Origin: Desulfobacterales bacterium
GTDB lineage: Bacteria > Desulfobacterota > Desulfovibrionia > Desulfovibrionales > Desulfothermaceae
NCBI GenBank assembly: GCA_027064715.1
Contig: JAMOPG010000233.1
Location: 1,694 to 65,693 of the forward strand
Length of the DNA stretch: 64,000 bases
Reading direction: 5' to 3'
Every line of letters begins with the position of its first letter. Position 1 is the stretch's first letter. The notes beneath the pieces were generated by a model that saw only the letters and a list, made by a program, of their open reading frames with translations, did not search any database and was not told where the DNA came from. Shown here piece after piece: positions 15,183 to 43,675 of this stretch. Made by a program: the position numbers and the translations under genes.

Positions 15183-15201
15183 TTTAGACAAGGATAGATT
15201 T

Positions 15202-16902: not shown

Positions 16903-16993
16903 AAATTTTTTAAAAAGGATATGAGAAGTTTATTTATTATAAGATAAGCACTTTTCTCTTGATGAAAATCCTTTGCTTTTATAGATTGAAACC

Positions 16994-17900: not shown

Positions 17901-17901
17901 T

Positions 17902-20166
17902 ATGTTAAGTAGAGAGTTAGAAAAGATTTTTGCCCTTGCAATCAGGGAAGTACGAATACGACATCACGAATTTTTGACCTTGGAGCATGTGTTGTATGCA
18001 TATCTTTTGGTGCCTGAAGGCAAAGATATTTTAGTAAATTGCGGGGTAGATTTATCTCGTTTAAAAAGACAGCTAGAGAGATATTTTGCTGACAATTTAG
18101 AGTCATATCCCCATACTTCTGGAAAAGAGGTTATCCAGACATTGGCTGTTCAGAGGGTTCTTCAGCGGGCAATTATTCATGTGCAATCAGCAGACAAAAA
18201 AGAGGTGGAACCTGGGGATTTTTTGGCGGCAGCAATGGAAGAAACAGATTCATATGCAGTATATTTTTTAAAAAGTCATGGAGTAGAGAGGTTAGATATT
18301 TTAGAATATATATCCCATGGCCCAAAAACACAACAACCTTTTCAAAAAAAAGGTGAGTCATTTTTAGAAAAATATACCCAAAACCTTGTGTTAAAGGCAA
18401 AAATGGGTCTTATTGATCCCTTGATTGGTCGCAAAAAAGAACTTGAGAGGACCATTCAAATATTGTGCAGAAGACGAAAGAACAATCCACTCTTTGTTGG
18501 AGAGCCAGGGGTGGGAAAGACTGCCCTTGCAGAGGGTCTTGCATATAAGATTGCCAAAGGTGAGGTACCTGAACGTTTTCTAGATACCACCATCTATGCC
18601 CTTGATATGGGATCTTTAATCGCTGGCACCAAGTTCAGGGGAGATTTTGAGGCAAGACTCAAGGGCATAATAAATGAATTGCAAAAAAAAAGAGATAATG
18701 TGATATTGTTCATTGATGAGATACACACAGTAGTGGGTGCTGGTGCAAGCAGTGGTGGATCTTTGGATGCATCAAATATATTAAAACCTGTTTTGGCATC
18801 TGGTGAGATTAGATGTATTGGGTCAACAACCTATGAGGAATACAAAAACCTATTTGAAAAAGACAGGGCTTTATCTAGGCGTTTTCAGAAGATAGATATT
18901 GAGGAGCCATCACGTGAAGAAACTATTGAGATTTTAAAAGGCCTAAAAAAATATTATGAACAATTTCACAATATTTCTTACACAAATAAGGCGTTAGAGG
19001 CTGCAGTTGATTTGAGTATCAAATATCTGCCTGACAGGTTTTTGCCTGACAAGGCAATAGATGTAATTGATGAATGTGGTGCTCATTTGACTCTGCACAA
19101 AAAGGATAGAAAGGTTGTTGGTGTAAAGGATGTGGAGACTGTTGTTGCAAAGATGGCCAGGGTGCCAATAAAGAGTGTAGAGAGGTCAGACAAGAATAGG
19201 TTAAAATCTTTAGAACAAGAATTGTTAAAGGTTGTGTATGGTCAAGATGAGGCAGTAAAGCAGGTGGTTGCGGCTATTAAAAGGGCAAGGGCGGGGCTTA
19301 GAGAACCAAATAAACCAATTGGGAGCTTTTTATTTGTTGGACCAACTGGAGTTGGAAAGACAGAGCTTGCAAGACAGCTGGCCAATATATTGGGGATCAA
19401 TTTTCTCAGATTTGATATGAGTGAATATATGGAGCAGCATTCAGTGGCGAGGTTAATTGGTGCTCCCCCTGGATATATTGGATTTGATCAAGGAGGACTT
19501 TTGACTGATGCTATCAGAAAACATCCCCAGAGTGTGCTATTGTTAGATGAGATAGAAAAGGCACATCCAGATCTGTTTAATATACTATTACAGGTAATGG
19601 ACTATGCTACTTTGACTGATAATACAGGAAGAAAAGCAGATTTTAGACATGTAATCCTCCTTATGACATCAAATATTGGTGCAAGAGAGATGTCCACTTC
19701 TTCCATTGGATTTGCAAAAGGCGAGATAGAGGATAAGTCTCATAAAGGGATCAAAGCTGCACAAAGATATTTCTCCCCTGAGTTTAGAAATAGATTGGAC
19801 GCCATAATTCCATTCAGACCTCTATCAAAAGATCTCATGAAAAAGATTGTGGATAAGTTTATTAGGGAGTTAAATGAACAAATAAGGGACAAAAAGGTTG
19901 TTGTGAAATTGACTGAAGAAGCTAGAGAGGTTTTGGCTGAAAAAGGTTTTGATCCAGACTATGGGGCAAGGCCTCTAAGACGTGTTATTCAAAAGGAGAT
20001 AGCAAATCCACTTACAGATGAAATACTCTTTGGTAGATTGGAACATGGTGGAGTGGTATATGTGTCTGTTGAAAGAAGAGAAGGTGATGCTACATTTGTG
20101 TTTGAATTTGAAGATAAACAAAAAAATGGTGTAAAAAGGCAGATGTGTGAAGTGGAGTCTTGTTAA
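17902..20166 (+). CDS. clpA: ATP-dependent Clp protease ATP-binding subunit ClpA
   Basis: Two AAA modules (GEPGVGKTA and GPTGVGKTE Walker A motifs) and a Clp N-domain, immediately downstream of clpS. Confidence 0.92.
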
Positions 20167-20773
20167 GGGATTTCAGCCAGTAAGCCTATGTGATTGGCCA
20201 TCTCTTGTCACAAGTGTGATTTTTTTGGGTGGTTGCAATTTCAGGTGTCCAACCTGTCATAACAAAGATATTGCCTTTTTCCCTGAAAGATGCCCTACTA
20301 TTCCCATTGATAACATATTTTCATATCTTGTTAAAAAGCAGATGTGGATTGATGGTGTTGTTATATCAGGAGGAGAACCAACCATATTTAATCATCTACA
20401 TGAGCTCATTTCTGAGATCAGGAAACTGGGCTTTAAGGTTAAGCTTGATACAAATGGTTCAAAGCCAGATATAATTAAAACATTACTTGAAGAAAAAATG
20501 GTTGATCTTTTTGCTGTTGATATAAAAGGGCCTTTTGAAAAATATCCAATACTTACAGGCAATAAGATCACAGAAAGAGAGGTCAAAAAAAATTTTTATA
20601 AAATTTTTGAAATGGCAAATTCCTATCCCTCTAAATTTATTTTCAGAACCACAAAAGTACCCTTTTTGACACAAGAGGATATTCGTATTATAAAGACTTA
20701 TCTACCAAAAGGCTTTGACCTCATACTTCAAGAATATAGAGAAGTTAGTAATATTGGGTTTAAAGATGCATAG
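20147..20773 (+). CDS. nrdG: Anaerobic ribonucleotide reductase activating radical SAM protein
   Basis: GGCNFRCPTCHN radical SAM motif. Small size, adjacent to nrdD. Confidence 0.8.
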   Translation: MKWSLVKGFQPVSLCDWPSLVTSVIFLGGCNFRCPTCHNKDIAFFPERCPTIPIDNIFSYLVKKQMWIDGVVISGGEPTIFNHLHELISEIRKLGFKVKLDTNGSKPDIIKTLLEEKMVDLFAVDIKGPFEKYPILTGNKITEREVKKNFYKIFEMANSYPSKFIFRTTKVPFLTQEDIRIIKTYLPKGFDLILQEYREVSNIGFKDA

Positions 20774-20908
20774 ATAGCGGAAGATGTAGGGAACTATCCT
20801 ATTTTGTTTATCCATTTTTTTAGATTTTTTATAAAACAAAGATATGAAGAGTAAGGGCTCTGGAGTTTCGGGGGATTTATTTTCTTATTGAATATAAGGT
20901 AAAGGGAG

Positions 20909-23011
20909 ATGGATATGAGTTTAGAGATTGCTTTAAATAGAGAGAAGAAAGTAAAAACAATGGATAAGCCCAAAAAAATAAAAAAGAGGGATGGGAGGAT
21001 AGAGACATGGTCAGTTGATAGGATTGCAAATGCCATTTTAAAGGCCCTTAATGCAAGTGGAATAAAAGATCCATTACTGGCAAAAAGATTGGCCATAAAG
21101 GTAGAAAAAAAGCTTTTAGGCATAGAGATTCCAGAGCAAGAGCAAGTGCAGGATATGGTAGAATTGGTCTTAATGGAAAACAGATTATATCATGTGGCAA
21201 AGAGATACATAGTATATAGAGAACAGAGGAGACAGCTTCGGTCCCAAACAGAAGCCTTTTTAAATATAGGGAAAACAATAGATGATTATCTTTCTAAGGA
21301 TGATTGGCGGGTCAATGAAAATGCCAACATGGCTCATTCATTTCAAGGGCTTATGTTGTATCTTTCTGGATCAGTCCAGGCAAGGTATGCACTTGAAAAA
21401 TATCCAGAGGAGATAAGACTTGCCCATGAACATGCATATATTCATATCCATGATCTCTCTTTTGGCTTGGCAGGGTATTGTGCTGGATGGAGTCTGAGGG
21501 ATCTGCTGCTTGAGGGATTTAATTTAGAAGGCAGATGTTCCGCAGGGCCTGCAAAGCACTTTGATTCTGCATTAGGTCAGATGGTGAATTTTTTAGGCAC
21601 ACTCCAAAATGAGTGGGCTGGAGCCCAGGCATTTAACAATGTGGATACATACCTAGCGCCTTTTATAAGAAAGGATAAACTCACATATAAAGAGGTAAAA
21701 CAATCTATACAGAAGTTCATATTTAACTTGAATACCACCTCTAGATGGGGTGGGCAGTCTCCTTTTACCAATGTGACCTTTGATTTGATCCCGCCTGAGC
21801 ACCTTGCAAATGAGGCAGTGATAATTGATGGGAAGCTTCACAATAGCACCTATGGTGAATATGAAAAAGAGATGGAAATGATAAATAGGGCCTTTTTGGA
21901 AACCATGCTTGAAGGAGACTATCATGGACGTATCTTTAGCTTTCCAATTCCAACATATAATGTGACTAAAGATTTTCCATGGGATTCTGAGGTAGGAGAA
22001 CTTCTTCTAAAACTCACAGCCAAATATGGTGTTCCATATTTTCAAAACTTTATAAATTCTGATCTAAAGCCAGAAGATGTAAGGTCAATGTGTTGTAGAT
22101 TGCAGATGGATTTAAGGGAACTAAAGAAGAGGACAGGAGGGCTTTTTGGAGCAGGGGATCTAACAGGTTCAATTGGAGTGGTCACCATTAATTTGCCAAA
22201 GCTTGCATATCTTGCACAGGGCGAGGAGGACTTTTTGGATCTGGTAACTGAATACGCAGAGCTTGCTAAACAATCTTTAGAGTTTAAGAGAAAATGGGTG
22301 TCTGATAATTTAGAGAAAGGTATGTTTCCATATTCCAAGAGATATTTAAAAAATGGATTGAAAAATCATTTTTCCACAATAGGAATCATTGGTGGTCACG
22401 AGGCATGTTTGAATCTTCTGGGAAAAGGAATAGAAACACCTGCTGGAATGAGATTAATGAAAAGGACACTGGAACATCTGAGGGAACTTACTAAAGATTT
22501 TCAGGAAGAGACAGGAAATTTATATAATTTAGAAGCAACACCTGCTGAGGGAGCTAGCTATAGACTGGCAAGGATAGATAAAAGACTTTATAAAGATATA
22601 ATTACATCTGGTAATAATGAGCCCTATTATACAAATTCTACCTGTCTTCCTGTGGACTTTACAGATGATGTATTCACTGCACTGGAACATCAAAATGAAT
22701 TGCAACCACTATATACAGGAGGCACAGTGTTTCATGTTTATCTTGGTGAGGCAGTAACAGATTTACACAGTCTTAAAAATTTTATTATTAAGGCAATGAG
22801 TAATACAAAACTTCCATATATATCAATAACCCCAACATTTTCTGTTTGTAAAAATCATGGTTATCTAAAAGGTGAACATTTTAAATGCCCAAAATGTGGA
22901 GAAGAGACAGAAGTCTATACAAGGGTAGTGGGATATTATAGACCTGTTTCCATGTGGAATAAGGGAAAACAGGAAGAATATAGAGATAGAGTTGTCTTTA
23001 AGTTGAGCTAA
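20909..23011 (+). CDS. nrdD: Anaerobic ribonucleoside-triphosphate reductase
   Basis: N-terminal ATP-cone (IKKRDGRIETWSVDRIANAI). C-terminal Zn ribbon CPKCGEE followed by the glycyl-radical motif RVVGYYRP. Confidence 0.92.
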   Translation: MDMSLEIALNREKKVKTMDKPKKIKKRDGRIETWSVDRIANAILKALNASGIKDPLLAKRLAIKVEKKLLGIEIPEQEQVQDMVELVLMENRLYHVAKRYIVYREQRRQLRSQTEAFLNIGKTIDDYLSKDDWRVNENANMAHSFQGLMLYLSGSVQARYALEKYPEEIRLAHEHAYIHIHDLSFGLAGYCAGWSLRDLLLEGFNLEGRCSAGPAKHFDSALGQMVNFLGTLQNEWAGAQAFNNVDTYLAPFIRKDKLTYKEVKQSIQKFIFNLNTTSRWGGQSPFTNVTFDLIPPEHLANEAVIIDGKLHNSTYGEYEKEMEMINRAFLETMLEGDYHGRIFSFPIPTYNVTKDFPWDSEVGELLLKLTAKYGVPYFQNFINSDLKPEDVRSMCCRLQMDLRELKKRTGGLFGAGDLTGSIGVVTINLPKLAYLAQGEEDFLDLVTEYAELAKQSLEFKRKWVSDNLEKGMFPYSKRYLKNGLKNHFSTIGIIGGHEACLNLLGKGIETPAGMRLMKRTLEHLRELTKDFQEETGNLYNLEATPAEGASYRLARIDKRLYKDIITSGNNEPYYTNSTCLPVDFTDDVFTALEHQNELQPLYTGGTVFHVYLGEAVTDLHSLKNFIIKAMSNTKLPYISITPTFSVCKNHGYLKGEHFKCPKCGEETEVYTRVVGYYRPVSMWNKGKQEEYRDRVVFKLS

Positions 23012-26991: not shown

Positions 26992-27408
26992 TTAATGTCC
27001 ACCACTTCCCAAAATTCCTGATGCAGCTAATAGTAACACCAATACTTCAACTGTTGCAATTGCAGTATACACTTTTTCACCTTCTTTTAAGTATGCTGGT
27101 ATCAAAGTTAGGTATCCAATTATTGTAAGTGCCCCTAGAATGGCAATTCCTATAAAATTTAAAAAATCTCCTTTCCCTAGCATTGTTATCCAAGTCCATC
27201 CAGGTTGAATATTTGTCTGTTTTAAGAATTCATCTACAGGAAGATGCCATAGGTGCTCAATGGTCTTTATTGGTATATAAGGATCCATAATACCAAAAAT
27301 ATATAATAGATATGTTATAATCATAAGTGCAATACTTCCCCAACTTCCCCAAAATAGTATTTCAGCATAAAGAAGCTGTTCTGGTCTTACTTTAACCTTA
27401 TTATTCAT
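26992..27408 (-). CDS. Small membrane protein (DUF1634-like partner of TauE/SafE)
   Basis: 138 aa with 3-4 TM segments, directly downstream of the TauE-like permease, as is common for DUF81/DUF1634 pairs. Confidence 0.55.
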   Translation of the reverse strand: MNNKVKVRPEQLLYAEILFWGSWGSIALMIITYLLYIFGIMDPYIPIKTIEHLWHLPVDEFLKQTNIQPGWTWITMLGKGDFLNFIGIAILGALTIIGYLTLIPAYLKEGEKVYTAIATVEVLVLLLAASGILGSGGH

Positions 27409-27438
27409 AATTATACCTCCAAAGATATATTTTATTTT

Positions 27439-28395
27439 TTAATGACCAAGACCCTTTAAAAGTGCTTTTCCCCCTGCAAATATAAGTACCCCTATTACCA
27501 GATAACGAATAAGGGCAGGTTTGGCCTTAGCAAGGATTTTTACTCCTACAATAGATCCCAGCATAAGCCCAATAATAGAGGGGATAGTAATAAGCGGAAT
27601 CACGCAACCTCTATTTAAATAAATCCAGGCAGCAGAGGTGTCTGTAATGGAGAGCAAAAACTTACTAGTTGCAACAGCGATCTTTAAAGGTACACCCATA
27701 ACTAGATTTAAAACAGGGAGATTTGCCCAACCAGCCCCGAGACCAAACATACCAGCCACTGTTCCTATAAAGATAAATAAAATAAGACCAGCAAGGGTAT
27801 TTTTGGTCTTCCACTCAATAATTTGTCCTGTAGACTCTTCTAAATAGCTACCATGTAACCCAAGGGCGAGACCAATGGCATCTTGTTTAGTTACCACAGG
27901 GTATTCCACATTTTTTGAAGTAAGTAATAATACTGCTATAAAGAGTATTGTAGCTCCAAGTAATATTTGGACAATGTTAGTAGGGAGGGATAAACCTAAA
28001 AACGCACCACCAATGGCAGATGTAGAAGCAATTAATGCAACAGGAAGGGCCAATCTTAGATTTGCTAGGTTTCGTTTAAGTAATCCTGGTCCAGCAGCTA
28101 ATGCTCCAGAAAGAGCAACAAAAAGGCCTGCTCCTCTCACAAAATCTAAATGAAATGGGAAAAAGGCTGAAACCAAGGGCACATATAAAACTCCTCCTCC
28201 CACACCTGCTAATACAGCAATTATACCTAATACAAAGCAGAAAATGAAAAGAATAGCTGGCCAAAACCACCAGGGCTTTGTTGCAGCTGCAGTTTTAGCA
28301 CTAGCAGTTTCTGCACAAAATCCATACTGAACTATAAAAAATAAAAACAACAAAATAAATAAGAGAATCATAGAGTTAACAAACCTATTTCTCAT
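27439..28395 (-). CDS. TauE/SafE (DUF81) family sulfite/anion exporter
   Basis: Glycine-rich repeated TM pattern (VLAGVGGGVLYVPL ... GMFGLGAGWANLPVL), typical of DUF81. Confidence 0.75.
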   Translation of the reverse strand: MRNRFVNSMILLFILLFLFFIVQYGFCAETASAKTAAATKPWWFWPAILFIFCFVLGIIAVLAGVGGGVLYVPLVSAFFPFHLDFVRGAGLFVALSGALAAGPGLLKRNLANLRLALPVALIASTSAIGGAFLGLSLPTNIVQILLGATILFIAVLLLTSKNVEYPVVTKQDAIGLALGLHGSYLEESTGQIIEWKTKNTLAGLILFIFIGTVAGMFGLGAGWANLPVLNLVMGVPLKIAVATSKFLLSITDTSAAWIYLNRGCVIPLITIPSIIGLMLGSIVGVKILAKAKPALIRYLVIGVLIFAGGKALLKGLGH

Positions 28396-28628
28396 AATCC
28401 TTTACCTCCTATTTTCAATTTTATTTTTTGTTATTTTTTTAACCATAAAGGCACTCTTTTTTGTGAAAAAAAGAACAATATTTTTTTAAAGCCTATAACT
28501 AGTTTTTTATATTCTGTCAACAAAAAAATATGTTTAAAAATGAAACAATTTATAAACAGTGTTTTAGATAGAAATAATAATTAAAAAATAAAAATCAGTG
28601 TTATTAAGTGTTATTAACTAAATAATAT

Positions 28629-30662
28629 CTATATTAAAACTAGATCCATTGTTTCTATGAGTTCTTTTATAAAGATAATTTTTAAGTCTTGAGTTAAGGA
28701 ATTTGGGATTGTAGTAAAGTCTGGCTCGTTTTTTTCTGGAAAGATTACAGTTTTTATACCAGCAAGTTTTGCTGCAAGTAATTTTTCTCTAATACCTCCC
28801 ACTGGTAACACTCTTCCTGACAAAGTAATCTCTCCTGTAAGTCCAATATCTCTTTTGCATTTTTTGCCTGTTATTAGGGAGATTAGAGATGCGAAGATGG
28901 GCACTCCAGCAGATGGTCCATCCTTTGGTATGGCACCTGCTGGGACGTGTATGTGTATATCGTGTGATTTAAAAAAATTATTATCAATATCAAATAGATG
29001 GGCATTGGACTTGATAAAACTAAGTGCTGCTTGAGCTGATTCTTTTAAGACATTGCCTAGAGATCCAGTTAAAATTAGTTTGTCTGATCCTGGCATTTTC
29101 GTTGATTCTATAAATAATATTTCACCGCCATATGGGGTCCATGCAAGGGCTGTTGCCACTCCAACTCTATCTTTTACATCTAATATAGTGGGCTTATATT
29201 TGGGCGGTCCAAGGAGATTTTCCACATCCTTTGATGTAATTTTTATATTTTTGTTTTCACCAAACTCTTTATTCACAATTTTTCTCGCAGTTTTTCTAAG
29301 TATAGAGGATACTTGCCTGTGTAGGTTCCTAAGCCCTGCTTCTTTTGTATATTCTTTTATAATCTTTTTTATTGCTTCGTGTTCAAATACTATATTGTAG
29401 TCTATTAAACCATTTTCTTTTATTTCTCTTGATATTAAGTGCCTTTTGCAAATTTCTATCTTTTCTTCTTCCAAGTATCCATGAACAGGTATTATCTCCA
29501 ATCGATCCAGAAGTGGAGCTGGGATTGTGTCAGTGGTATTTGCTGTTGCAATAAACATTACCTTTGAGAGATCAAAGGGTATATCCAAGTAATGGTCCAC
29601 AAAGTTTTTATTTTGGTGCGGATCTAAGATTTCAAGTAAAGGTGCAGAGGGATCGCCTTTAAAATCCTGTCCAATTTTATCTATTTCATCTAACATAAAC
29701 ACAGGATTTTTGGATCCAGCCCTTCTTATCTCCTGTATAATTCTACCTGGAAGAGCGCCTACATAACTCCTCCTATGCCCTCTAAGCTGGGCTTCGTCTT
29801 TTACACCAGCCAAAGAGATCATGATAAAGTTTCTATTCATACTTTTGGCAATTGCAGCTCCTAAAGATGTTTTTCCAGTTCCAGGAGGACCAACAAAACA
29901 TAAGATAGGTCCTTTTGATTCAAACTCAACTAGCTGATTCTCTAATGCATTTTCAACTGTGGATATGAGCTCATCGAGTTTGATTGGTTTTGATAAAAAA
30001 TGAAAAGATCCCTTTTTTAATGCCTCTACTGCGCTGGATACAGTGGCATAACCAGTGATAATAATAACTTCTGTTGAAGGACTTGCCTTTTTAGCAGCAT
30101 CAAGTACTGAGAGTCCATCAACCTCCTTCATTTTAAGATCAGTAATTATTAGATCAAAATTTATCTTGTTTATATAGTTTAATGCTTCTTCACCACTAAG
30201 TGCTCCATACACCTCATATTCCTTTTTCTCTAAAACATGCTTTATGTTCATGCATGTGAGCTTTTCATCATCCACAACTAAAATTTTAAATCTCTTTTGA
30301 GACTTTAAGATCCTTACAGCAAGGTGTTCCAAGATCCTGTCTTTAATTTCTTGAAGCCCATAATGATACATATCCAATATTTCAGCAGCCCTGTTTAAAT
30401 CAAGATTGTCTTTGGTTAAGGTATTCCAGGGGAGAGAGAGAAGATAATCTATATAATTTATCCCAATTGTGTATTCTGCAGAAGATTCAGAGACATATTT
30501 TATCCTGTCTAACTCCTTTAATGCAGCCTTTGCCACATAATCAGGAAGATCTTTTTCCATTATTTCCTTTCTGAGCTTAGAAAGTTCAGAGAAGCCTTCT
30601 TCCACTTCATTTGATTTTTTAACTGGTGCTTCTTTATTCTCTTTTTTATTAAAAAAGATCAT
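28629..30662 (-). CDS. lon: Atypical Lon protease: no LON N-domain, CheY-like receiver inserted before the AAA+ module
   Basis: Reading order: HYGLQEIKDRILEHLAV, then the receiver (FKILVVDDE...DLIITDLKM...IIITGYATVSSAVEALKKGSFHFLSKP), then Walker A GPILCFVGPPGTGKTS, Walker B FMLDEIDK, protease Ser PKDGPSAG and Lys GGIREKLLAA. The ORF is open to 30683, but GGAGG precedes the ATG at 30662. Confidence 0.85.
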   Translation of the reverse strand: MIFFNKKENKEAPVKKSNEVEEGFSELSKLRKEIMEKDLPDYVAKAALKELDRIKYVSESSAEYTIGINYIDYLLSLPWNTLTKDNLDLNRAAEILDMYHYGLQEIKDRILEHLAVRILKSQKRFKILVVDDEKLTCMNIKHVLEKKEYEVYGALSGEEALNYINKINFDLIITDLKMKEVDGLSVLDAAKKASPSTEVIIITGYATVSSAVEALKKGSFHFLSKPIKLDELISTVENALENQLVEFESKGPILCFVGPPGTGKTSLGAAIAKSMNRNFIMISLAGVKDEAQLRGHRRSYVGALPGRIIQEIRRAGSKNPVFMLDEIDKIGQDFKGDPSAPLLEILDPHQNKNFVDHYLDIPFDLSKVMFIATANTTDTIPAPLLDRLEIIPVHGYLEEEKIEICKRHLISREIKENGLIDYNIVFEHEAIKKIIKEYTKEAGLRNLHRQVSSILRKTARKIVNKEFGENKNIKITSKDVENLLGPPKYKPTILDVKDRVGVATALAWTPYGGEILFIESTKMPGSDKLILTGSLGNVLKESAQAALSFIKSNAHLFDIDNNFFKSHDIHIHVPAGAIPKDGPSAGVPIFASLISLITGKKCKRDIGLTGEITLSGRVLPVGGIREKLLAAKLAGIKTVIFPEKNEPDFTTIPNSLTQDLKIIFIKELIETMDLVLI

Positions 30663-30760
30663 TCTACCTCCAAAAAGTGTCATTGATGTCTCTTCTTTTT
30701 ATATTAAATTATAGAGCACCAAAAGTGAAGTATTTATTGTTGATTTTGTAATGTTTAAAG

Positions 30761-30789
30761 ATGCAACATTTATATTAAAACTGTTGCAT
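30761..30789. promoter_or_regulatory. Candidate enhancer (UAS) palindrome ATGCAACA-N13-TGTTGCAT
   Basis: Perfect 8-bp inverted repeat about 150-170 bp upstream of the sigma-54 promoter. Further TGTTG(C/T)(A/G) copies at 30796, 30853 and 30923. Confidence 0.45.
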
Positions 30790-30933
30790 TTTTATTGTTG
30801 CGTTGGTAACTATTTAAATTTAAATGATAAAATGGAATTTTAAAAATAATCATGTTGTATTTTGCAATAATATAATGTCTGTAAAATGTGGTGTTACAAT
30901 ATTATTTTTAATGAAAACAATATGTTGCAAATT

Positions 30934-30949
30934 TGGCACCTTGTTTGCT
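30934..30949 (+). promoter_or_regulatory. Sigma-54 (-24/-12) promoter
   Basis: TGGCAC-cttgt-TTGCT fits TGGCAC-N5-TTGCW with correct GG/GC spacing. It lies about 35 nt upstream of the ATG at 30984. Confidence 0.65.
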
Positions 30950-30983: not shown

Positions 30984-31160
30984 ATGTTGAAAAAAGAAAA
31001 AGTTTTAAAAAAACTTGAAAGGATTATGGTAGCAGTGACCTTTGCAGAGGCAAATCTACATGAGGAGTCAGTAAATATCTTGAATGAAGATAAAGAGAAG
31101 AGGGTGGAAAAAGGGATAAGGATTGAGAAAAAACAGCAAAGGCCACAAATTAGATTGTAA
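30984..31160 (+). CDS. Unannotated 58-aa ORF (below the ORF-track cutoff)
   Basis: AAGGGGG RBS 6-7 nt upstream of the ATG. Translation is MLKKEKVLKKLERIMVAVTFAEANLHEESVNILNEDKEKRVEKGIRIEKKQQRPQIRL. It shares the AVxFAE..H motif with the next two genes. Confidence 0.5.
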   Translation: MLKKEKVLKKLERIMVAVTFAEANLHEESVNILNEDKEKRVEKGIRIEKKQQRPQIRL

Positions 31161-31191: not shown

Positions 31192-31674
31192 ATGGGGAAG
31201 ATATTGGTGGTCAGTAATGGTATCTATCCTGATCTACAAAGTGTGAGTTATACAGTGGAGCTGGCCACCTCCTTAAACTCACAAGTAGAAATCTTAGAGG
31301 TTGTGCCAAAAGATCAAGGGATAGCTTTTTTAAACAGGAAAAAAAGTCTTTTGGGTGCTGTAAAGTCTTTGATGGAAGATGTGTATGTTGCTGTTGGTTT
31401 TGCAGAAGAAAATCAGCATGACATTGCCAAAGAGATTATAAATGAAGCAGTTATGAATCTTCATCCTTATATTACTAAGTTGAAGAATTGTGGAATCCAT
31501 GCACGTCTAGTGTTAAAAAGTGGTGAATTCTTAAAAGAGACAAAAGATTTTATAAGGAAAAATAAAGATATATTGATGGCAATTTTGGCTATTAAAAAGG
31601 ATAAAAAAAGCCAATTTTATCTTGATAGGTTGAAAAAAGAAGTAGACATACCAATTATAATGGTTGGAACTTAA
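31192..31674 (+). CDS. Universal-stress-protein-like (degenerate USP fold) protein
   Basis: AGGAGG RBS. A USP-like start (KILVVSNG...ELATSLNSQVEILEVV) and end (DIPIIMVG), but no clear G-2x-G-9x-G(S/T) ATP motif. Confidence 0.5.
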   Translation: MGKILVVSNGIYPDLQSVSYTVELATSLNSQVEILEVVPKDQGIAFLNRKKSLLGAVKSLMEDVYVAVGFAEENQHDIAKEIINEAVMNLHPYITKLKNCGIHARLVLKSGEFLKETKDFIRKNKDILMAILAIKKDKKSQFYLDRLKKEVDIPIIMVGT

Positions 31675-31697: not shown

Positions 31698-32252
31698 ATG
31701 GGGCTTTTTGATATATTCAAGAAAAAGGCAAATGAGGCAAAAGAAGAGATAATTAAATACCAGGAGGCAGTTGCATTTGCTGAGGAAGGAGAACATGGCG
31801 AAGCGAAACGGCGTATGAAAAAAGATACTTCTTTAGGTGATGTAAAGTCCATTTTATTAGTTGTGGGTAATGGCAATTCTTTTGGAAAAGATGTGATTGA
31901 ATATTCTATAGAGATGGCAAAAAAGTTTAATTATAAAATTGTTGCTCTAAATGCGGCTCCGATTGGTGATGATTTACCTGTAAAAAGTAATGAAAGGAGA
32001 AAACTTAGAGAAGAATTTATGGAAAAATGTAACTTATCAGCAGAAAATTTTAGAGATCTTGCTGAAAAACAAGGAATAGAGCTTGAACATGTAGTGAAGT
32101 TTTTGAACAAAGATGATGCTCTAGAAGAGATCAAAAGAGAGATACCAGGGATTGAATTTGTTATATCAGATAAAGAAAGAGATTTTGTACCATGTACATC
32201 GGAAAATAGGGCAAGTAAGAGACCATCTGTATGTGTTTATTCAATGGTATAA
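31698..32252 (+). CDS. USP-like protein with an N-terminal helical extension
   Basis: AGGAGG RBS. SILLVVGNGNSFGKDVIEYSIEMAKKFNYKIVALN resembles the first USP strand-helix-strand. The N-terminal extension carries AVAFAEEGEH. Confidence 0.5.
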   Translation: MGLFDIFKKKANEAKEEIIKYQEAVAFAEEGEHGEAKRRMKKDTSLGDVKSILLVVGNGNSFGKDVIEYSIEMAKKFNYKIVALNAAPIGDDLPVKSNERRKLREEFMEKCNLSAENFRDLAEKQGIELEHVVKFLNKDDALEEIKREIPGIEFVISDKERDFVPCTSENRASKRPSVCVYSMV

Positions 32253-32477: not shown

Positions 32478-32516
32478 CTAATGTTCAAATTATTCTAGTT
32501 GAAAGGGGAGGATAGT

Positions 32517-34331
32517 ATGACGCAGGACATGCTCCTTACAATGATTGTTTTAGGATTTGTTATTTTCCTGTTTGTATCTGAATGGGTAAGGGTAGATGTA
32601 GTGGGAATTATGATGATGGTGCTTTTACCACTTATGGGGTTAGTCACTCCATATGAAGCATTTTCTGGTTTAAGTTCCAATGCAGTTGTTTCAATTATTG
32701 CGGTAATTATAATTGGTGCAGGACTTGATAAAACTGGTGTTATGAATAAGGTTGCCAGTCCAATAATAAAACTGGCAGGCAACAACGAAAAGAGAATTAT
32801 AACCCTGATATCTGGTACAGTAGGAATTATCTCATCCATGATGCAAAATATTGGAGCAGCAGCACTATTTTTGCCAGCAGCTCAAAGAATAGCAAAAAGG
32901 ACCGGAGTTCCAGTATCTAGAATACTCATGCCCATGGGTTTCTGTGCAATAATTGGAGGTACCATAACTTTGGTAGGTGCAAGTCCAACCATTTTACTAA
33001 ATGATCTAATGGTCTTAAATGGACAAAAATTAAAACCTTTTGGGCTTTTTACTCAAACTCCAATTGGTATCTGTCTATTGGCAACTGCAATTATCTATTT
33101 CTCCTTTTTTGGCAAGTATGTACTCCCAGCACGAGAGGGACAGGCCGAAAAAGGGATATCTGATTTATTGATGGAAGCATATAGAGGGCTTGAAAGTGTT
33201 TTTGAGTTAGAAGTTCCTGAAGACTTTGGTAAGGCAAAGACATTGGAAGAGCTGGCAATTCGAGAGCGCTTTTTAGTGACAGTTGTGGGAATCTATTCAA
33301 ATAAAAGGAAATACAAGACTTTGGTGCCAAGATCTTCTGATACAATACAGGGCGGAGATGTCATAGCAGTTGTTGGAGCAAAGAAAAATGTAGAACTACT
33401 GACAAGAGAATTAAATTTAGTATTAAAGCCACAGTTAGAGGTCTTTGCTGAAGATCTAGCAAGGACAAATGCAGGACTTGCTGAGACCATAGTTTCACCA
33501 AGGTCAGAGTTAATTGGTAAGACCTTAAGCGAAGTTAAATTTAAGGAATTATTTGGTGTAAATCCTGTGGCCTTGTTCAAGGGAAACAAGATCTTTTACG
33601 CTGGACTTACAAATATTAGACTAAGCATGGGAGATACCCTTTTGCTCTTTGGCCCCTGGGAAAAGTTTCATATTTTAAAAAATAGGCCACAACCTAGACC
33701 ACTTAGTTTTGCATCACCATTAGAAGGAGAAATTTTAAAACCTCAAAAGGCAAAATGGGCTGTGTTTTGGCTGGCACTTGCACTTTTTCAAATTATCTTT
33801 TTTAAGGTAAGGTTGTCTGTGGCACTTATGTCTGGAGCCCTTGGAATGATCTTGACTGGTGTCCTTACAGTGGATGAGGCGTATCAGTCCGTTGACTGGA
33901 TGACAGTATTTTTACTTGGAGGACTTATTCCCTTGGGTATTGCATTTGAAAAGACAGGAACAGCGTCTTTTATTGCCCATAAGATTTTAGAAGTAATTGG
34001 AAAGCCTTCACCAATTGTCCTTCTTACAGTAGTGGCAGTCCTAACATCATTTTTTACACTTGTCATATCCAATGTGGGTGCAACAGTACTTCTGGTACCC
34101 TTATGTATGAATATGGCTGTAATGGCAGGAGCAGATCCAAGAATGGCTGCCCTTGTAGTGGCTCTTTCTGCTTCAAATACCTTTGTGTTACCCACTCATC
34201 AGGTGAATGCACTTATTATGAGACCTGGTGGTTATAGGACTGTTGATTATGCAAAGGCTGGAAGTATAATGACGGTCTTGTTCCTTGTTGTGGAATTGTC
34301 TGTCTTATATTTCTTTTATGGAATCCAATAA
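32517..34331 (+). CDS. SLC13/DASS-family anion transporter with two central TrkA-C (RCK_C) domains
   Basis: Polytopic N- and C-terminal halves flank a soluble region with two RCK_C-like repeats (GKTLEELAIRERFLVTVVGI ... GDVIAVVG and GKTLSEVKFKELFGVNPVAL ... GDTLLLFG). GGAGG precedes the ATG at 32517; the ORF is open from a TTG at 32499. Confidence 0.85.
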   Translation: MTQDMLLTMIVLGFVIFLFVSEWVRVDVVGIMMMVLLPLMGLVTPYEAFSGLSSNAVVSIIAVIIIGAGLDKTGVMNKVASPIIKLAGNNEKRIITLISGTVGIISSMMQNIGAAALFLPAAQRIAKRTGVPVSRILMPMGFCAIIGGTITLVGASPTILLNDLMVLNGQKLKPFGLFTQTPIGICLLATAIIYFSFFGKYVLPAREGQAEKGISDLLMEAYRGLESVFELEVPEDFGKAKTLEELAIRERFLVTVVGIYSNKRKYKTLVPRSSDTIQGGDVIAVVGAKKNVELLTRELNLVLKPQLEVFAEDLARTNAGLAETIVSPRSELIGKTLSEVKFKELFGVNPVALFKGNKIFYAGLTNIRLSMGDTLLLFGPWEKFHILKNRPQPRPLSFASPLEGEILKPQKAKWAVFWLALALFQIIFFKVRLSVALMSGALGMILTGVLTVDEAYQSVDWMTVFLLGGLIPLGIAFEKTGTASFIAHKILEVIGKPSPIVLLTVVAVLTSFFTLVISNVGATVLLVPLCMNMAVMAGADPRMAALVVALSASNTFVLPTHQVNALIMRPGGYRTVDYAKAGSIMTVLFLVVELSVLYFFYGIQ

Positions 34332-34606: not shown

Positions 34607-36019
34607 ATGTTAAGAATTAGTCTTAGAAATAAAATTTTAATTACATTTTTTATACTTTTTGTTATTTCTTTCTTTATCTGTTTTTATGGATTTTATAACT
34701 ATAATAAATTGAACTATAAAATAGCAGTATTAGAAAAAAAGACAACTTTACTAAACTATATACTTGAAGCCAGAAGGCATGAAAAGAATTTTTTTATAAC
34801 TCGTGATAAGGTTTATTTAAAAACTGCGCTGGAATTTTTAAGAAAATCAGATTCATTAATTAATACTATACTAAAAGAGTATAAAGAATACATGGAGTTT
34901 CACAATTTTGATATAGTACAACAAATACTGTTAGAATATGAAAATGCCATTAAATCTCTCCAGCAAAAAGTTGAGGCAGGGTATAGCGTTGATTTAAAAG
35001 AAGCGGAATATGTAAGACAAAAGGGACACATTATAACAACAAAACTGGAGGAAGCAATAAACAAGGAAAAGGGAGCCATACGCATTCTTATTGAAAAGTC
35101 CAGGGATTATCTATTCTTGAGTGTGTTTTCAATGATTGGTGCAACAATAATTGTTTTGATCTTTTTGATCATAAATGTCATCTGTCCCTTGAAAGAGATT
35201 GAGGATGCAATAAAGAAGATTAGTACAGGTGATTATGAATTAATTCCAGATATTAAATCAGGAGATGAATTTGAAAGGCTGGCTGAAAGGCTAAATACCC
35301 TTTTATCTGATATAAAAAGGAGAAATGAACAACTTGTACAAAGTGAGAAGATGGCAGCTTTGGGTACATTGACTTCTGGAGTGGCACATGAGCTCAATAA
35401 TCCTTTGAACAACATATCTACCTCTCTTCAGATTGTTCTTGAAGAAATTGATGAAGGGGATATAGAATATCAAAAAGAGCTTTTGAGGGAGGCCTTGAAA
35501 CAGGTTGATAGGGCACAAGATATAGTTAAAAGTTTACTGGAGTTCTCAAGAGAGACTGAATTTAGCGTAAGTGAAGAAAATTTACGTCAGTTGGTAAATA
35601 ATACATTAAAATTAATTCAAGGAGAATTACCAGCCAATGTCTATGTTGATGTAGATATCCCTGATCACATCACTGCAAAAGTGGATCCCAGACGCATACA
35701 ACAGGTTTTTTTAAATCTGTTGTTAAATGCAATACAGGCCATGGAAAAAACAGGTGGACATATATATGTGAGGGCTAGAAGAGATGAAGAACAAAAAGGG
35801 GTGGTAATAGAGGTTGAAGATACTGGACCAGGGATCCCTGAAGAGATAATAGGAAAGATATTTGATCCTTTTTTTACTACAAAGGAAGTAGGAAAGGGAT
35901 CAGGGCTTGGTTTATCTGTTTCACAGGGTATAATTAGCCAACATGGAGGGACAATATCTGTCTGGAGTAAGGTTGGGGTAGGCACAAAATTCACCATATT
36001 TTTGCCAGATAAAAAATAG
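34607..36019 (+). CDS. Sensor histidine kinase (2 TM, HAMP, HisKA, HATPase_c)
   Basis: H-box SGVAHELNNPLNNI, an N-box-like region LLLNAIQAM, G-boxes DTGPGI and GSGLGLSV, and a HAMP region around CPLKEIEDAIKKISTGDYE. Confidence 0.88.
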   Translation: MLRISLRNKILITFFILFVISFFICFYGFYNYNKLNYKIAVLEKKTTLLNYILEARRHEKNFFITRDKVYLKTALEFLRKSDSLINTILKEYKEYMEFHNFDIVQQILLEYENAIKSLQQKVEAGYSVDLKEAEYVRQKGHIITTKLEEAINKEKGAIRILIEKSRDYLFLSVFSMIGATIIVLIFLIINVICPLKEIEDAIKKISTGDYELIPDIKSGDEFERLAERLNTLLSDIKRRNEQLVQSEKMAALGTLTSGVAHELNNPLNNISTSLQIVLEEIDEGDIEYQKELLREALKQVDRAQDIVKSLLEFSRETEFSVSEENLRQLVNNTLKLIQGELPANVYVDVDIPDHITAKVDPRRIQQVFLNLLLNAIQAMEKTGGHIYVRARRDEEQKGVVIEVEDTGPGIPEEIIGKIFDPFFTTKEVGKGSGLGLSVSQGIISQHGGTISVWSKVGVGTKFTIFLPDKK

Positions 36020-36034
36020 AGGTTTGTTAAAATC

Positions 36035-37393
36035 ATGGAAAATAGAGAGTTTGAGATTTTAGTTGTGGAAGACGAAGAAATTGCCAGGAAAAATCTGGAG
36101 AGGATTTTGATTAAAGAAGGTTACAGGGTAACAAGTGTGCCCAGCGGATATGAAGCAATAGATAAATTGAAGGAACAGGAGTTTGACCTTGTTGTTACAG
36201 ATCTGAAGATGGAAGGCATTGATGGAATGGAAGTGCTTAGATATGTAAAAGAGAATTTTCCACATACTGAAGTTATAATGATTACAGGTTATGCCACTGT
36301 GGATTCTGCTGTGGAGGCCATGAAAAGTGGGGCATTTCACTATATAGCCAAGCCTTACAAATTGAATGAAGTTAGGATGATAGTAAAACAAGCCCTTTCT
36401 AAAAGAGAGCTTCAGCTTGAAAATATTAAGTTAAAAGAAAAATTGTCTAACAATAAGAGTTCAGTGGTTTTAATTGGAAAGTCAAAGCCTTTTTTATCTG
36501 CACTGGATACAGCAAAACAAGTGGCTCCCACAGATGCAAATGTGTTGATCTTAGGGGAATCAGGTACAGGCAAGGAACTTGTTGCAAAATATATACATCA
36601 GATGAGCAAACGGGCAAAAAATAATTTTATTGCCTTTAATTGTGGTGCGCTTACAGAAGAATTGATGGCAAATGAGCTATTTGGGCATGAAAAAGGGGCA
36701 TATACTGGTGCTGATTCAGTAAAAAAAGGACTACTTGAAGTGGCACATGGTGGAACCCTTTTTTTAGATGAAGTGGGGGATATGCCCTTATCTATGCAGG
36801 TGAAGCTGCTTCGTGCAATTCAAGAAAGGGAAATATTAAGGGTTGGAGGAACAACTCCTATTAAGGTAGATGTGAGATTCATTGCTGCAACACATAGAAA
36901 CCTTCAAAAAGAGGTGGAAGAAGGAAATTTCAGACAGGATTTGTACTATAGATTAAACGTCGTGACCATAAAGCTTCCACCTTTGAGCGAACGAAAAGAA
37001 GATATTCCTTTACTGGTTAATCACTTTATACGCCAAAAATCTAAGGAAATGGAAAAGAATGTAAAAAATATTACAAAACAGGCAATGGATGTATTATTAA
37101 AATATTCATGGCCTGGAAATGTAAGGGAATTAGAAAATGTAATAGAACGAGCAGTGGCTTTGGCTCAAGGTGATGTTATAGATGTGGATCTACTCCCAGA
37201 CTATGTGCAGATGTATGAGGTTCATACCTTTAGAAGGGATGATTCTGACATCCCTACACTTGAGGAGATAGAGAGGGATTATATATTATGGGTATTAAAA
37301 AAATGCGGTGGCAATAAATCCCAGGCTGCAAAGATAATGGGTATTGATAGAGTCTCGTTGTGGCGTAAGTTGAAAAAGTGGATTAATAAGTAG
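36035..37393 (+). CDS. Sigma-54-dependent response regulator (NtrC family: REC-AAA+-HTH)
   Basis: Receiver ILVVEDE...VVTDLKM...KP. Walker A GESGTGKE, GAFTGA-loop variant GHEKGAYTGA, Walker B LFLDEVGDM. Fis-type HTH at the C-terminus (GNKSQAAKIMGIDRVSLWRKLKK). Confidence 0.92.
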   Translation: MENREFEILVVEDEEIARKNLERILIKEGYRVTSVPSGYEAIDKLKEQEFDLVVTDLKMEGIDGMEVLRYVKENFPHTEVIMITGYATVDSAVEAMKSGAFHYIAKPYKLNEVRMIVKQALSKRELQLENIKLKEKLSNNKSSVVLIGKSKPFLSALDTAKQVAPTDANVLILGESGTGKELVAKYIHQMSKRAKNNFIAFNCGALTEELMANELFGHEKGAYTGADSVKKGLLEVAHGGTLFLDEVGDMPLSMQVKLLRAIQEREILRVGGTTPIKVDVRFIAATHRNLQKEVEEGNFRQDLYYRLNVVTIKLPPLSERKEDIPLLVNHFIRQKSKEMEKNVKNITKQAMDVLLKYSWPGNVRELENVIERAVALAQGDVIDVDLLPDYVQMYEVHTFRRDDSDIPTLEEIERDYILWVLKKCGGNKSQAAKIMGIDRVSLWRKLKKWINK

Positions 37394-37395
37394 GA

Positions 37396-38703
37396 TTATA
37401 CGGGTTTTTCCATTAAGTTATAAATTATTTCTCCCAAAAATCTCACTTTCATATCTAATTCATAAAATTGTACAATATCTTCAAGTCCACTATGACAATT
37501 ATGGCAGGGTGCAATTACAATCTTAGCCCCAGTCTTTTTTAGTTGTTCTGCCTTTACTTTATTGCCTTTTACCCTTTTTTCTTTATATATTGGGCCACAA
37601 TTAATAACACCACCCCCTGCTCCACAACAGATATTGTGCTCTTTATTTGGATACATTTCTATTATGTTTTCACACAAATAAGACACAACCTCTCTAAGCA
37701 GGTTATGAAGTCCTCTGCCTCTAGATATATTACATGGATCATGAATCGTAACAGGCTCTTTTATTTTTTCTCTTATTTTTATTTTGCCTCTTTTTAATAG
37801 ATAAGCTAAAAATTCTACAGCATGTATAACCTTTATTGGATAATATTTCCATCCCAACTGTCTATTGATTGTATCGTACACGGACCTAAATGCATGTCCA
37901 CATTCACACATTACAATATAATTACATTTTAGTTTCAAAGCTGCTTCAAAATGAGAACGTTTTAATTGTTGAGAAATTGTATCATCCCTTACATACATTG
38001 CCATGTCACTGTTATCCCAGCCTGGTTGAGATGACATTGTCCAATTTACTTTTGCAATATTAAATATGCTGGACATATAATAAATCAACTCTGGGCTAAA
38101 TTTGGGTTCAGGTGCAATGACAGAGTACATAAAATCTGCACCAACCTTATCTATTGGGATTTCTCCCCAGGGAAATTCCCCTCTTAATTCTTCTTCCTGC
38201 CATTTTAGGGTATCTACCCATTCATCATCCTTTACCCACATTTGATTAAAAAAGGCAGCATGGGAATTTACAGTGTCTTGAATATATTGGGGAACCATCC
38301 CAATTAAACAACAAATCCTTCTTACTACAGACATCAAATAAGCAGTATCTATCCCCATAGGGCAATACAGAACACATCTTTTACAAAGAGTGCATTCAGT
38401 AAAGGCAATTTCAGCTATTTTTGCCATCTCAATTGGTGTTATTTCACCATTTTTCTTTATTATTTTTTTTAAGGTATTTTTTACCTTCCCCACAGGGGAA
38501 TAGTAGGGATCAAAGTTGTGGGATATACAAAAATGACACGCATTAAAACACATGCCACAGTTAATACATGATGATAGATAGAATTTTAATCTACTGCCGT
38601 TCTCTTTATTCAGCACCTGATCAACAGCATTTTTGATATCTTGAGTAGATATTTGTTGGCTAACTTTAATCAGATGACTATCTGTTATTTCAATGGATTC
38701 CAT
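37396..38703 (-). CDS. HdrD/DsrK-like iron-sulfur protein with CCG domains
   Basis: Two ferredoxin-type cluster motifs (CINCGMCFNAC, CTLCKRCVLYCP) and CCG-type cysteine motifs (HDPCN, CCGAGGG, PCHNCH). AGGAG precedes the ATG at 38703; the ORF is open to 38757. Confidence 0.8.
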   Translation of the reverse strand: MESIEITDSHLIKVSQQISTQDIKNAVDQVLNKENGSRLKFYLSSCINCGMCFNACHFCISHNFDPYYSPVGKVKNTLKKIIKKNGEITPIEMAKIAEIAFTECTLCKRCVLYCPMGIDTAYLMSVVRRICCLIGMVPQYIQDTVNSHAAFFNQMWVKDDEWVDTLKWQEEELRGEFPWGEIPIDKVGADFMYSVIAPEPKFSPELIYYMSSIFNIAKVNWTMSSQPGWDNSDMAMYVRDDTISQQLKRSHFEAALKLKCNYIVMCECGHAFRSVYDTINRQLGWKYYPIKVIHAVEFLAYLLKRGKIKIREKIKEPVTIHDPCNISRGRGLHNLLREVVSYLCENIIEMYPNKEHNICCGAGGGVINCGPIYKEKRVKGNKVKAEQLKKTGAKIVIAPCHNCHSGLEDIVQFYELDMKVRFLGEIIYNLMEKPV

Positions 38704-38740
38704 AATAGAAACTCCTATATTTTGAGATAGTTGAATTATT

Positions 38741-39412
38741 TTACCAATCATAGACATTTCTTATTCGTCCAAATTCAGATCCTATATATCCTCTTAAGAT
38801 TGGTGCAAAAATTATATGTGATAATTTGGTAATGGGTATTAAAATAATTAGAAGCTCACTTAACAATATGTGAGTGCAAATAAAAAATTTATAATTAATG
38901 AATTGATGGTAAGAAACAAAACCTGTAAAAAGTACTAAGAAGCACAAACATATCAAAAAATAATCTTGAAAAGTACTTATATATCTTATTTTTTTGTCTA
39001 TTATTCTTCTTATAAAAAGATAAGCAGCAGAAATCAAACCCACAACTGTGAATATATCTGATATAGTTTCTGATAATGTAAAATAACTTATTCCCCATGA
39101 CATTCGTATTAGTATTACATGTGCTGTTAAAAAGATTGGTATAAGAAAAATAGATATGTGAAATAGGATAGTAGCTATTGTGAAGGGAATATTTTGTCGC
39201 CAACTTTTTGCTAAAAAAAGAATATTCCATGCAACAATAGATCTAAATGCATAACCTATATGATAATACCTCAATACTTCTGGATCTTTATTTTTAGATA
39301 GAAAGAAAAAATATAAAATTTTTATAATAAATCCTATAATTAATATGCTAAATGATATCCATGCCATAGGACCTATTAAAAAGCTATAAATGATGTTCAT
39401 AACAGTCTCCAT
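38741..39412 (-). CDS. DsrM/NarI-like integral membrane (heme b-type) subunit
   Basis: 223 aa with about 5-6 TM segments and conserved-looking histidines in TM helices (LFHISIF, TAHVIL, CTHILL, KLSHII). It is coupled to the HdrD/DsrK-like gene. Confidence 0.6.
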   Translation of the reverse strand: METVMNIIYSFLIGPMAWISFSILIIGFIIKILYFFFLSKNKDPEVLRYYHIGYAFRSIVAWNILFLAKSWRQNIPFTIATILFHISIFLIPIFLTAHVILIRMSWGISYFTLSETISDIFTVVGLISAAYLFIRRIIDKKIRYISTFQDYFLICLCFLVLFTGFVSYHQFINYKFFICTHILLSELLIILIPITKLSHIIFAPILRGYIGSEFGRIRNVYDW

Positions 39413-40746: not shown

Positions 40747-40766
40747 TTTTTGCTCCTGGTATTTGT

Positions 40767-40782
40767 TGCAAAATGTGTTCCT
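40767..40782 (-). promoter_or_regulatory. Candidate sigma-54 promoter for the repeat-protein/DsrMK-like operon
   Basis: The minus strand reads AGGAAC-acatt-TTGCA, with correct GG/GC spacing, an exact -12 TTGCA and two mismatches in the -24 hexamer. It lies 20 nt upstream of the ATG at 40746, so the leader would be very short. Confidence 0.35.
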
Positions 40783-40919
40783 ACACACGCTCAATTATAT
40801 TTTATAGCTATTTAATGTTATATGAAAGATAATTTTTTAACGTCAGCTATAGCGGAAAGATTCGCCTTCATAAGCAACCTTAGCTCTGAAGACAAAATGA
40901 TTTAAATCATGATTTCCTC

Positions 40920-42128: not shown

Positions 42129-42130
42129 AT

Positions 42131-43660: not shown

Positions 43661-43675
43661 ATCTTGTCCTTTTAT

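Follow-up and report, generated by a model that had tools for sequence, protein, structure and literature searches.

In a 64-kb stretch of DNA from a Desulfobacterales bacterium (positions 1,694 to 65,693 of contig JAMOPG010000233.1, assembly GCA_027064715.1; hereafter the window, in whose own numbering all coordinates are given), an open reading frame (ORF) of 684 amino acids at 28629..30683 on the minus strand encodes a Lon protease that lacks the N-terminal substrate-recognition domain and carries a response-regulator receiver inserted directly before the Walker A motif of its ATPase module. We refer to this architecture as REC-Lon. Phosphorylation-gated proteolysis by REC-Lon is plausible because the phospho-acceptor quintet of the receiver is invariant or nearly so among homologues, a histidine kinase is conserved near the gene, and a twin of the receiver is found on a sigma54-dependent activator encoded in the same module.

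The ORF came from the ORF list of the window and matched the NCBIfam lon model TIGR00763 (endopeptidase La) above its cut-off (710.2 bits versus 608.05); the E. coli-type equivalog NF008053 was not reached (555.5 versus 891). Pfam domains were found in the order Response_reg (residues 134-243, E=1.1e-26, spanning model positions 1-110 of 111), AAA (261-397), Lon_lid (422-473) and Lon_C (481-683), and the same scan gave no match to LON_substr_bdg (PF02190). Residues are numbered here in the 684-residue ORF; translation probably starts at M8 (nucleotide 30662), giving a product of 677 amino acids, because the family consensus in the homologue alignment begins at that residue. When the protein was aligned with solved structures, residues 8-103 and 106-530 of B. 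subtilis Lon (3m6a) corresponded to query residues 32-127 and 256-683, and residues 232-349 and 348-775 of T. thermophilus Lon corresponded to query residues 15-132 and 253-683. Because two blocks of Lon sequence flank the receiver in these alignments, the receiver is a clean insertion in a short Lon loop: ∼125 residues replace the 2-3-residue loop that, in canonical Lon, leads from the last N-terminal helix (HYGL...RILEHLAV) to strand beta1 and the Walker A motif. Only ∼10 residues separate receiver helix alpha5 from beta1 of the AAA+ module, and the receiver is thus internal and not an N-terminal fusion.

All segments of the protein lie on the minus strand and could be placed on the DNA. The retained helical LonA N-region (residues 32-128, 30300..30590), which ends in the HYGL...RILEHLAV helix, was defined by the alignments to 3m6a and T. 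thermophilus Lon and by an AlphaFold2 (AF2) monomer model, in which it forms five helices, from H33-43 to H111-128. The inserted receiver (residues 133-254, 29922..30287) was defined by Pfam, by its match to the NtrC1 receiver, by conservation and by AF2; its phospho-acceptor, D182, is encoded at 30138-30140. The AF2 monomer shows a (beta-alpha)5 CheY fold for residues 133-254 with a predicted local distance difference test (pLDDT) score of ∼80-87, and alpha5 (236-254) runs nearly straight into the ATPase. There follow the AAA+ alpha/beta subdomain (residues 256-400, 29484..29918; Pfam AAA), with Walker A (265-272) at 29868-29891, pore-loop Y307, Walker B D332/E333, sensor-1 N382 and the arginine finger R394, these residues being invariant in 120 or 54 homologues; the AAA+ lid (residues 401-480, 29244..29483; Lon_lid, E=4.6e-18), with an invariant sensor-2 R452; and the S16 Lon protease domain (residues 481-683, 28635..29243; Lon_C, E=1.2e-80), with S591 at 28911-28913 and K634 at 28782-28784. 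The codons of D182, S591 and K634 were verified. P590 precedes the catalytic S591 and 42 residues lie between S591 and K634, which makes this a LonA-type dyad, as Pro before Ser and 42 intervening residues to Lys are the LonA signature (PMC9569914).

An earlier note on this DNA, made by a model from the letters alone, had read the ORF as a Lon without its substrate domain, had placed a receiver between the Lon helix and Walker A, had quoted the motifs around D138/D139, D182, T210, K232, Walker A, S591 and K634, and had taken the protease Ser and Lys to be intact. The hidden Markov model (HMM) domain order, the flanking Lon blocks, the AF2 fold and the start of the full-length Lon alignment at about residue 232 bear out this reading, and each of the quoted motifs is present. 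The note had also put the missing N domain at ∼300 amino acids. Its absence stands, and its size does not: from the alignments, the missing part is about 230-250 amino acids, comprising the globular domain and most of the long helix, with a helical N-region of ∼100 amino acids kept. Searches with the N-terminal ∼250 amino acids of canonical Lons found no fragment of the missing domain elsewhere in the 64-kb window, which rules out a split gene or an N domain encoded elsewhere in the window. Similarly, no canonical Lon was found in the window.

The best solved match to the receiver was the receiver of NtrC1 (E=1e-22), and NtrC4 and other NtrC-family receivers were also matched; no structure joining a receiver with Lon was found in the search of solved structures. 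Only the receiver is NtrC-like, as Pfam gave no Sigma54_activat or HTH_8 match in REC-Lon. Conservation was assessed in the best 120 database relatives, which are 59-100% identical to the window protein and 665-700 amino acids long. The receiver quintet is retained throughout this set: D138 in 119 of 120, D139, D182 and K232 in every sequence, and T210 as Thr in 116 and as Ser in the other 4. Further, little or no variation was seen at the Lon residues K271, D332/E333, Y307, N382, R394, R452, S591 and K634, the last two being invariant, and the beta4-alpha4 region of the receiver (T210-S226) is highly conserved. Mean column identity was 0.76 in the receiver versus 0.72-0.89 in the remaining protein; the receiver is conserved like the other domains and is therefore under selection. 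We also observed that codon 155 (30219-30221), in the predicted receiver loop between alpha1 and beta2, encodes Glu in the window, whereas 118 of the 120 homologues have Gly there, among them a sibling protein (P0001) otherwise identical to the window protein; Glu155 reflects either strain variation or an error in sequencing.

Another search, this time starting with a member from Desulfovibrio, yielded a further 120 relatives, and Response_reg and Lon_C occurred together in 120 of 120 proteins in both sets. The architecture spans at least 240 sequence clusters and hundreds of genomes, and occurs in isolate genomes, many of them complete (Desulfobacter vibrioformis, Pseudodesulfovibrio, Maridesulfovibrio, Salidesulfovibrio, Paucidesulfovibrio and Thermodesulforhabdus). 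Desulfonauticus is the closest named relative among the matches listed (61-63% identity), and D. vulgaris is not named among the Desulfovibrionaceae REC-Lon matches listed. In a neighbor-joining tree of the ATPase-protease region, 18 REC-Lons formed one clade apart from 57 canonical Lons, on a short branch and without bootstrap; by this criterion, a single origin of REC-Lon is likely but not secure. Longer REC-Lon relatives (709-780 amino acids) gave no PF02190 match, and any additional length at the N terminus matched no domain and may reflect a mis-called start. A receiver-only search of 1.84 billion representatives was dominated in its ranking by multi-receiver proteins with summed scores, and is uninformative on the number of REC-Lons or the nearest receivers.

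Overall, REC-Lon is neither rare nor newly discovered, and it is little known among Lon specialists. In D. vulgaris Hildenborough, DVU3303 was described as a response regulator that includes a Lon protease and was grouped with the kinase DVU3304 and the sigma54-dependent regulator DVU3305 as a three-component system, so that both the architecture and the hypothesis of control by phosphorylation have been in print since 2011 (Rajeev et al. 2011, PMC3333781). Both operons are bound by DVU3305 in their upstream regions, and stress induces the genes (PMC3333781). Genetic data followed: the pairwise cofitness of DVU3303, DVU3304 and DVU3305 exceeds 0.9, and the phenotype is linked to the anion transporter DVU3299, which is a regulatory target (Trotter et al. 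2023, PMC10102598). The cofitness of DVU3303 suggests that protease, kinase and activator all act in one direction. The earlier note knew of no characterized example of this architecture, and in the biochemical sense this remains correct, as we found no assay, structure or other biochemical or structural study of REC-Lon in the searchable literature; it does not extend to novelty, given the 2011 description, the 2023 genetics and the number of clusters. Rarity likewise gave way in the survey of the architecture, which proved common among the relatives of sulfate reducers, as did a chimeric assembly, which the note had raised against itself, to the same unbroken architecture in clusters from independent assemblies.

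The window encodes the two partners expected from this system. A HAMP-HisKA-HATPase histidine kinase (34607..36019, plus strand; Pfam) is the sole kinase in the module and its presumed phosphodonor, and it is followed by a response regulator with the domain order REC-sigma54 activator-HTH_8 (36035..37393, plus strand; Pfam). The generality of this arrangement was examined in 17 REC-Lon loci from species-representative genomes among the matches listed, drawn from Desulfobacter, Desulfonema, Desulfomonilaceae, Syntrophobacter, Desulfocapsaceae, Desulfovibrio, Nitrospirota and Thermodesulfovibrionales. In 15 of the 17 loci, REC-Lon had within 9 kb full-length homologues of both the kinase, at 33-45% identity, and the sigma54 activator, at 50-58% identity, and the three genes occurred in at least three orders, namely divergent, convergent and as a same-strand lon-kinase-activator operon. 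Because the linkage survives rearrangement, it is strong evidence, independent of the D. vulgaris genetics, that lon, kinase and activator work together. The complete seven-gene module, including a small ORF and a promoter described below, was found again in Desulfonauticus and in one complete Desulfobacterales genome, and with small changes in two further loci.

The receivers themselves tie the protease to the activator. Identity between the Lon receiver and that of the neighboring activator, its closest relative, is 48%, compared with 53% for Lon receivers among themselves and 51% for activator receivers among themselves. A tree was built from all 50 receivers detected in 80 loci and the window; in it, the Lon and activator receivers formed one exclusive clade in which the two kinds are interleaved, and all 16 other receivers fell outside it. 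Receivers of the same locus were slightly more alike than those paired across loci (permutation p=0.00025), a difference to which shared host-genome ancestry could contribute. The window itself showed no receiver besides that of REC-Lon and that of the activator. Judged from these sequences, the twin paralogous receivers point to one shared kinase; the twin-receiver relation is a new point of this analysis.

On the opposite side of the lon gene's 5′ end lies a divergent operon. A sigma54 -24/-12 promoter is predicted from sequence match at 30934..30949 on the plus strand (TGGCACCTTGTTTGCT), directed away from lon into this operon, and no second perfect sigma54 promoter match occurs in the 64 kb. 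In two other loci (L081 and L083), the first small ORF has an equivalent element 35-57 nucleotides upstream of it. An inverted repeat read from the sequence at 30761..30789 (ATGCAACA-N13-TGTTGCAT) is a candidate binding site for the sigma54 activator. Further copies of TGTTGCA lie upstream of the promoter, including one at 30923-30929, and TGCAAC-type repeats precede the promoter in L081 and L083 too. Because the heptamer is common throughout the window (33 occurrences versus 10 expected), the intergenic copies are only candidate activator sites. Scans for sigma70 promoters and terminators around lon were not above shuffled expectation. Downstream of lon (28396-28628 and 26992-28395, minus strand), no terminator-like site separates it from the genes for a TauE-family permease and a DUF1634 protein, with which lon may be co-transcribed here; the TauE-family neighbor is not conserved at other REC-Lon loci.

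The operon opens with a 58-amino acid ORF (30984..31160, plus strand) carrying a FAEAG-type motif and falling below the 60-amino acid threshold of the ORF list. It is probably a real small protein because its position, first after the promoter, and its sequence are conserved in five other loci, where homologous ORFs of 54-61 amino acids occupy the same place (L081, L082, L083, L084 and L085). Next come a 160-amino acid protein with the same type of motif (31192..31674, plus strand; motif HMM E=4e-11), which has homologues in L081 and L083 and belongs to no credible Pfam or NCBIfam family, and a 184-amino acid protein (31698..32252, plus strand) with the motif at its N terminus (motif HMM E=1.5e-10) and a weak Usp-like domain (Pfam Usp E=0.0015, below the cut-off), whose relatives also give faint or weak Usp matches. 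They are followed by a CitMHS/DASS-type anion transporter with TrkA_C domains (32499..34331, plus strand; Pfam CitMHS E=5e-78 and TrkA_C), which is found beside REC-Lon in 6 of the 17 genome loci and in L081-L086 and is the likely counterpart of DVU3299, and by the kinase and activator genes.

The motif shared by the three small proteins is ∼25 residues long, with a consensus of about +KLE+hMxAhTFAEAGExETA+, and its copies read KKLERIMVAVTFAEANLHEESVNILN, SLMEDVYVAVGFAEENQHDIAKEIIN and EEIIKYQEAVAFAEEGEHGEAKRRMK. A strict pattern matched 12 times across 332 kb of REC-Lon loci, each time in the genes immediately upstream of lon, compared with one unrelated match in 799 kb of canonical-Lon loci; in the window, only the three small proteins matched. 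By the motif HMM, 9 of 20 REC-Lon loci carry the motif next to lon and none of the 63 canonical-Lon control loci does; besides the window, it occurs just upstream of lon in L001, L006, L008, L009, L011, L013, L081 and L083. It is not covered by any Pfam or NCBIfam family; the motif is undescribed and new from this analysis.

With moderate confidence, we interpret the module as a branched pathway in which a catalytically competent REC-Lon of the DVU3303 type forms one arm and the HAMP histidine kinase phosphorylates both twin receivers, that of the sigma54 activator and that of REC-Lon. Given the observed architecture, conservation, linkage and receiver kinship, we infer the phosphotransfer from the kinase, the direction of its effect and the substrates. 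The phosphorylated activator would switch on the divergent operon from 30934-30949 and hence the three small motif proteins, the transporter, the kinase and the activator itself. On the protease arm, phosphorylation of D182 would alter proteolytic output. The most likely route would be a rearrangement of a ring of six receivers over the substrate entry port, gating access, or else a change in ring assembly, because the six receivers would sit where the N domains normally crown the port. A more elaborate version, which we regard as unlikely, has the kinase running a circuit of synthesis and degradation: the activator would induce the three motif proteins, and REC-Lon would control their degradation or use them as adaptors, with the motif serving as a docking tag or degron in place of the lost N domain. 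If this were true, the module would contain a Lon that is switched by phosphorylation and dedicated to a genetically linked substrate set of its own.

Several observations weigh against the branched pathway or loosen its support. No sigma54 promoter for lon itself was detectable in the window, and candidates at other loci were inconsistent. Two of the 17 REC-Lon loci had no kinase or activator in the DNA covered, and, conversely, a metagenome locus (L085) has the small proteins, Usp protein, transporter, kinase and activator but no REC-Lon within 7 kb; there, a second sigma54 activator (L085 4443-5798) fills the divergent slot normally occupied by REC-Lon. The cofitness of DVU3303 could come partly from polar effects, since it is the first gene of its operon, and the case for orthology to DVU3303 is one of shared architecture and context rather than of direct sequence comparison. 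In the literature searched, we found no evidence that phosphorylation changes REC-Lon activity. Lastly, the AF2 monomer gives no information on how the receiver packs against the other domains, and its pLDDT is <50 over most of the AAA+ alpha/beta subdomain (residues 252-266, 302-309 and 331-400; ∼29484-29928). No other part of the protein is as well conserved as this subdomain. A shallow alignment of 54 close relatives is a possible cause of the low score, which is therefore not evidence of disorder.

The same features can be arranged differently if the receiver is a substrate-docking device. It would then heterodimerize with the activator's receiver through alpha4-beta5-alpha5 and deliver the activator, in one phosphorylation state, for degradation, providing negative feedback or signal termination. 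NtrC1-type receivers dimerize, and the closest solved relatives of the Lon receiver are of this type; the exclusive clade of twin receivers, the conserved beta4-alpha4 region and the loss of the general substrate-binding domain, which calls for some other recognition element, all fit such a role. However, removal of the activator would predict an opposite or different phenotype for the protease mutant, whereas in D. vulgaris the protease, kinase and activator mutants share one fitness pattern, which polarity might account for, and we consider docking rather unlikely. Competition for a single kinase, also suggested by the twin receivers, could instead make the Lon receiver a phosphate sink that tunes transcription while proteolysis is constitutive and independent of phosphorylation. 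Branched pathways with one kinase, two receivers and a sink are established in other systems. A sink, however, needs no precise insertion inside an AAA+ protease, and the conservation of the fusion, the insertion point and the protease and ATPase residues across at least 240 clusters argues for functional coupling, which makes this explanation quite improbable.

The position of the insertion, where the N-region joins the ring, would also suit a pseudo-receiver that stabilizes the hexamer as a structural, phosphorylation-independent substitute for the lost N domain, as the canonical LonA N-region contributes to assembly. Such domains usually lose the acidic pocket, the Thr or the Lys, whereas here the quintet is kept in the 120 homologues and a kinase is conserved nearby, and we hold this explanation to be very unlikely. 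An assembly chimera, a frameshift artifact or a decaying pseudogene has a negligible probability. TIGR (The Institute for Genomic Research) first annotated DVU3303 as 'ATP-dependent protease La, truncation', which would accord with an artifact, but an uninterrupted architecture of 665-700 amino acids recurs in independent assemblies that include complete isolate genomes, all catalytic residues are conserved and the window holds no N-domain fragment. Overall, the conservation data are poorly compatible with a structural-only role or an artifact and exclude a chimera or pseudogene.

We favor the branched pathway, with phosphorylation acting on the protease itself. If the gating is real, REC-Lon would link two-component signaling to regulated proteolysis in one polypeptide; to our knowledge, all well-studied routes between the two use separate adaptors, such as RssB and CpdR for ClpXP. 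REC-Lon would also be a natural experiment on Lon function without the substrate-recognition domain. As the family is large, occurs in cultivable sulfate reducers with genetic tools, and comes with a defined kinase, a partner bearing the twin receiver and linked candidate substrates, phospho-gating in cis of an AAA+ protease is directly testable.

The surroundings of the module (12939-23011 and 37396-46327) contain ordinary chromosomal genes, among them those for LptD, MutL, a ClpA-type double AAA+ unfoldase (17902-20166), the anaerobic ribonucleotide reductase NrdD, a CCG/4Fe-4S heterodisulfide-reductase-like protein, a HAD phosphatase with ACT, a fused tetrapyrrole methylase-HemD and valyl-tRNA synthetase. 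REC-Lon matched the protease domain of BrxL only partially and at domain level (54 bits); on this partial match and the housekeeping and two-component gene context, we reject a role in anti-phage defense.

Among known systems, that of DVU3303 is the closest. In both, one histidine kinase and one sigma54-dependent response regulator accompany a Lon that contains a receiver, and a neighboring operon under sigma54 control encodes hypothetical or UspA-type proteins and an anion transporter. In D. vulgaris, however, a single operon contains lon, kinase and activator and is among the activator's own targets, whereas here lon stands alone and divergent, and the kinase and activator genes close the sigma54 operon; relatives show either order. 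Compared with canonical LonA (E. coli, B. subtilis, M. taiwanensis and T. thermophilus), REC-Lon shares the AAA+ module, lid and S16 domain, which are ∼52-57% identical to those of canonical Lon from related bacteria, and the Pro-Ser...Lys dyad, but has neither the globular N domain nor the long helix and has gained the 125-residue receiver. Extra domains embedded in the Lon AAA+ module are known from the membrane anchor of LonB and the helical hairpin of LonC (PMC9569914); unlike the receiver, these are inserted within the alpha/beta subdomain and are not signaling domains. The same paper, which reviews the A/B/C classification of Lon and proposes LonBA, mentions no receiver or response regulator in its classes A, B, C and BA (PMC9569914). 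An engineered M. taiwanensis Lon, AAAP (residues 242-793, without 1-241), matches the wild type in both ATPase and peptidase activity and degrades casein but not damaged folded proteins (PMC8087443). Because AAAP begins at about the same point as REC-Lon (AAAP residue 242), REC-Lon is expected, by analogy, to be active but specialized and not a quality-control protease.

The arrangement of the receiver recalls the sigma54 activators of the NtrC1/DctD/NtrC type, in which an NtrC-subfamily receiver directly precedes an AAA+ P-loop domain in the same chain. In those proteins, however, the receiver precedes the entire ATPase and is joined to it by a linker of ∼45 residues, and the output is sigma54 remodeling rather than proteolysis, so that the resemblance would concern a possible mode of action and not family membership. 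The RssB and CpdR models gave receiver-level matches to REC-Lon. RssB in E. coli and CpdR in Caulobacter are response-regulator adaptors of ClpXP that act in trans as separate proteins. As in these adaptors, a receiver in REC-Lon would couple two-component signaling to an AAA+ protease; unlike in them, the receiver lies within the protease chain itself, and the protease is Lon instead of ClpXP.

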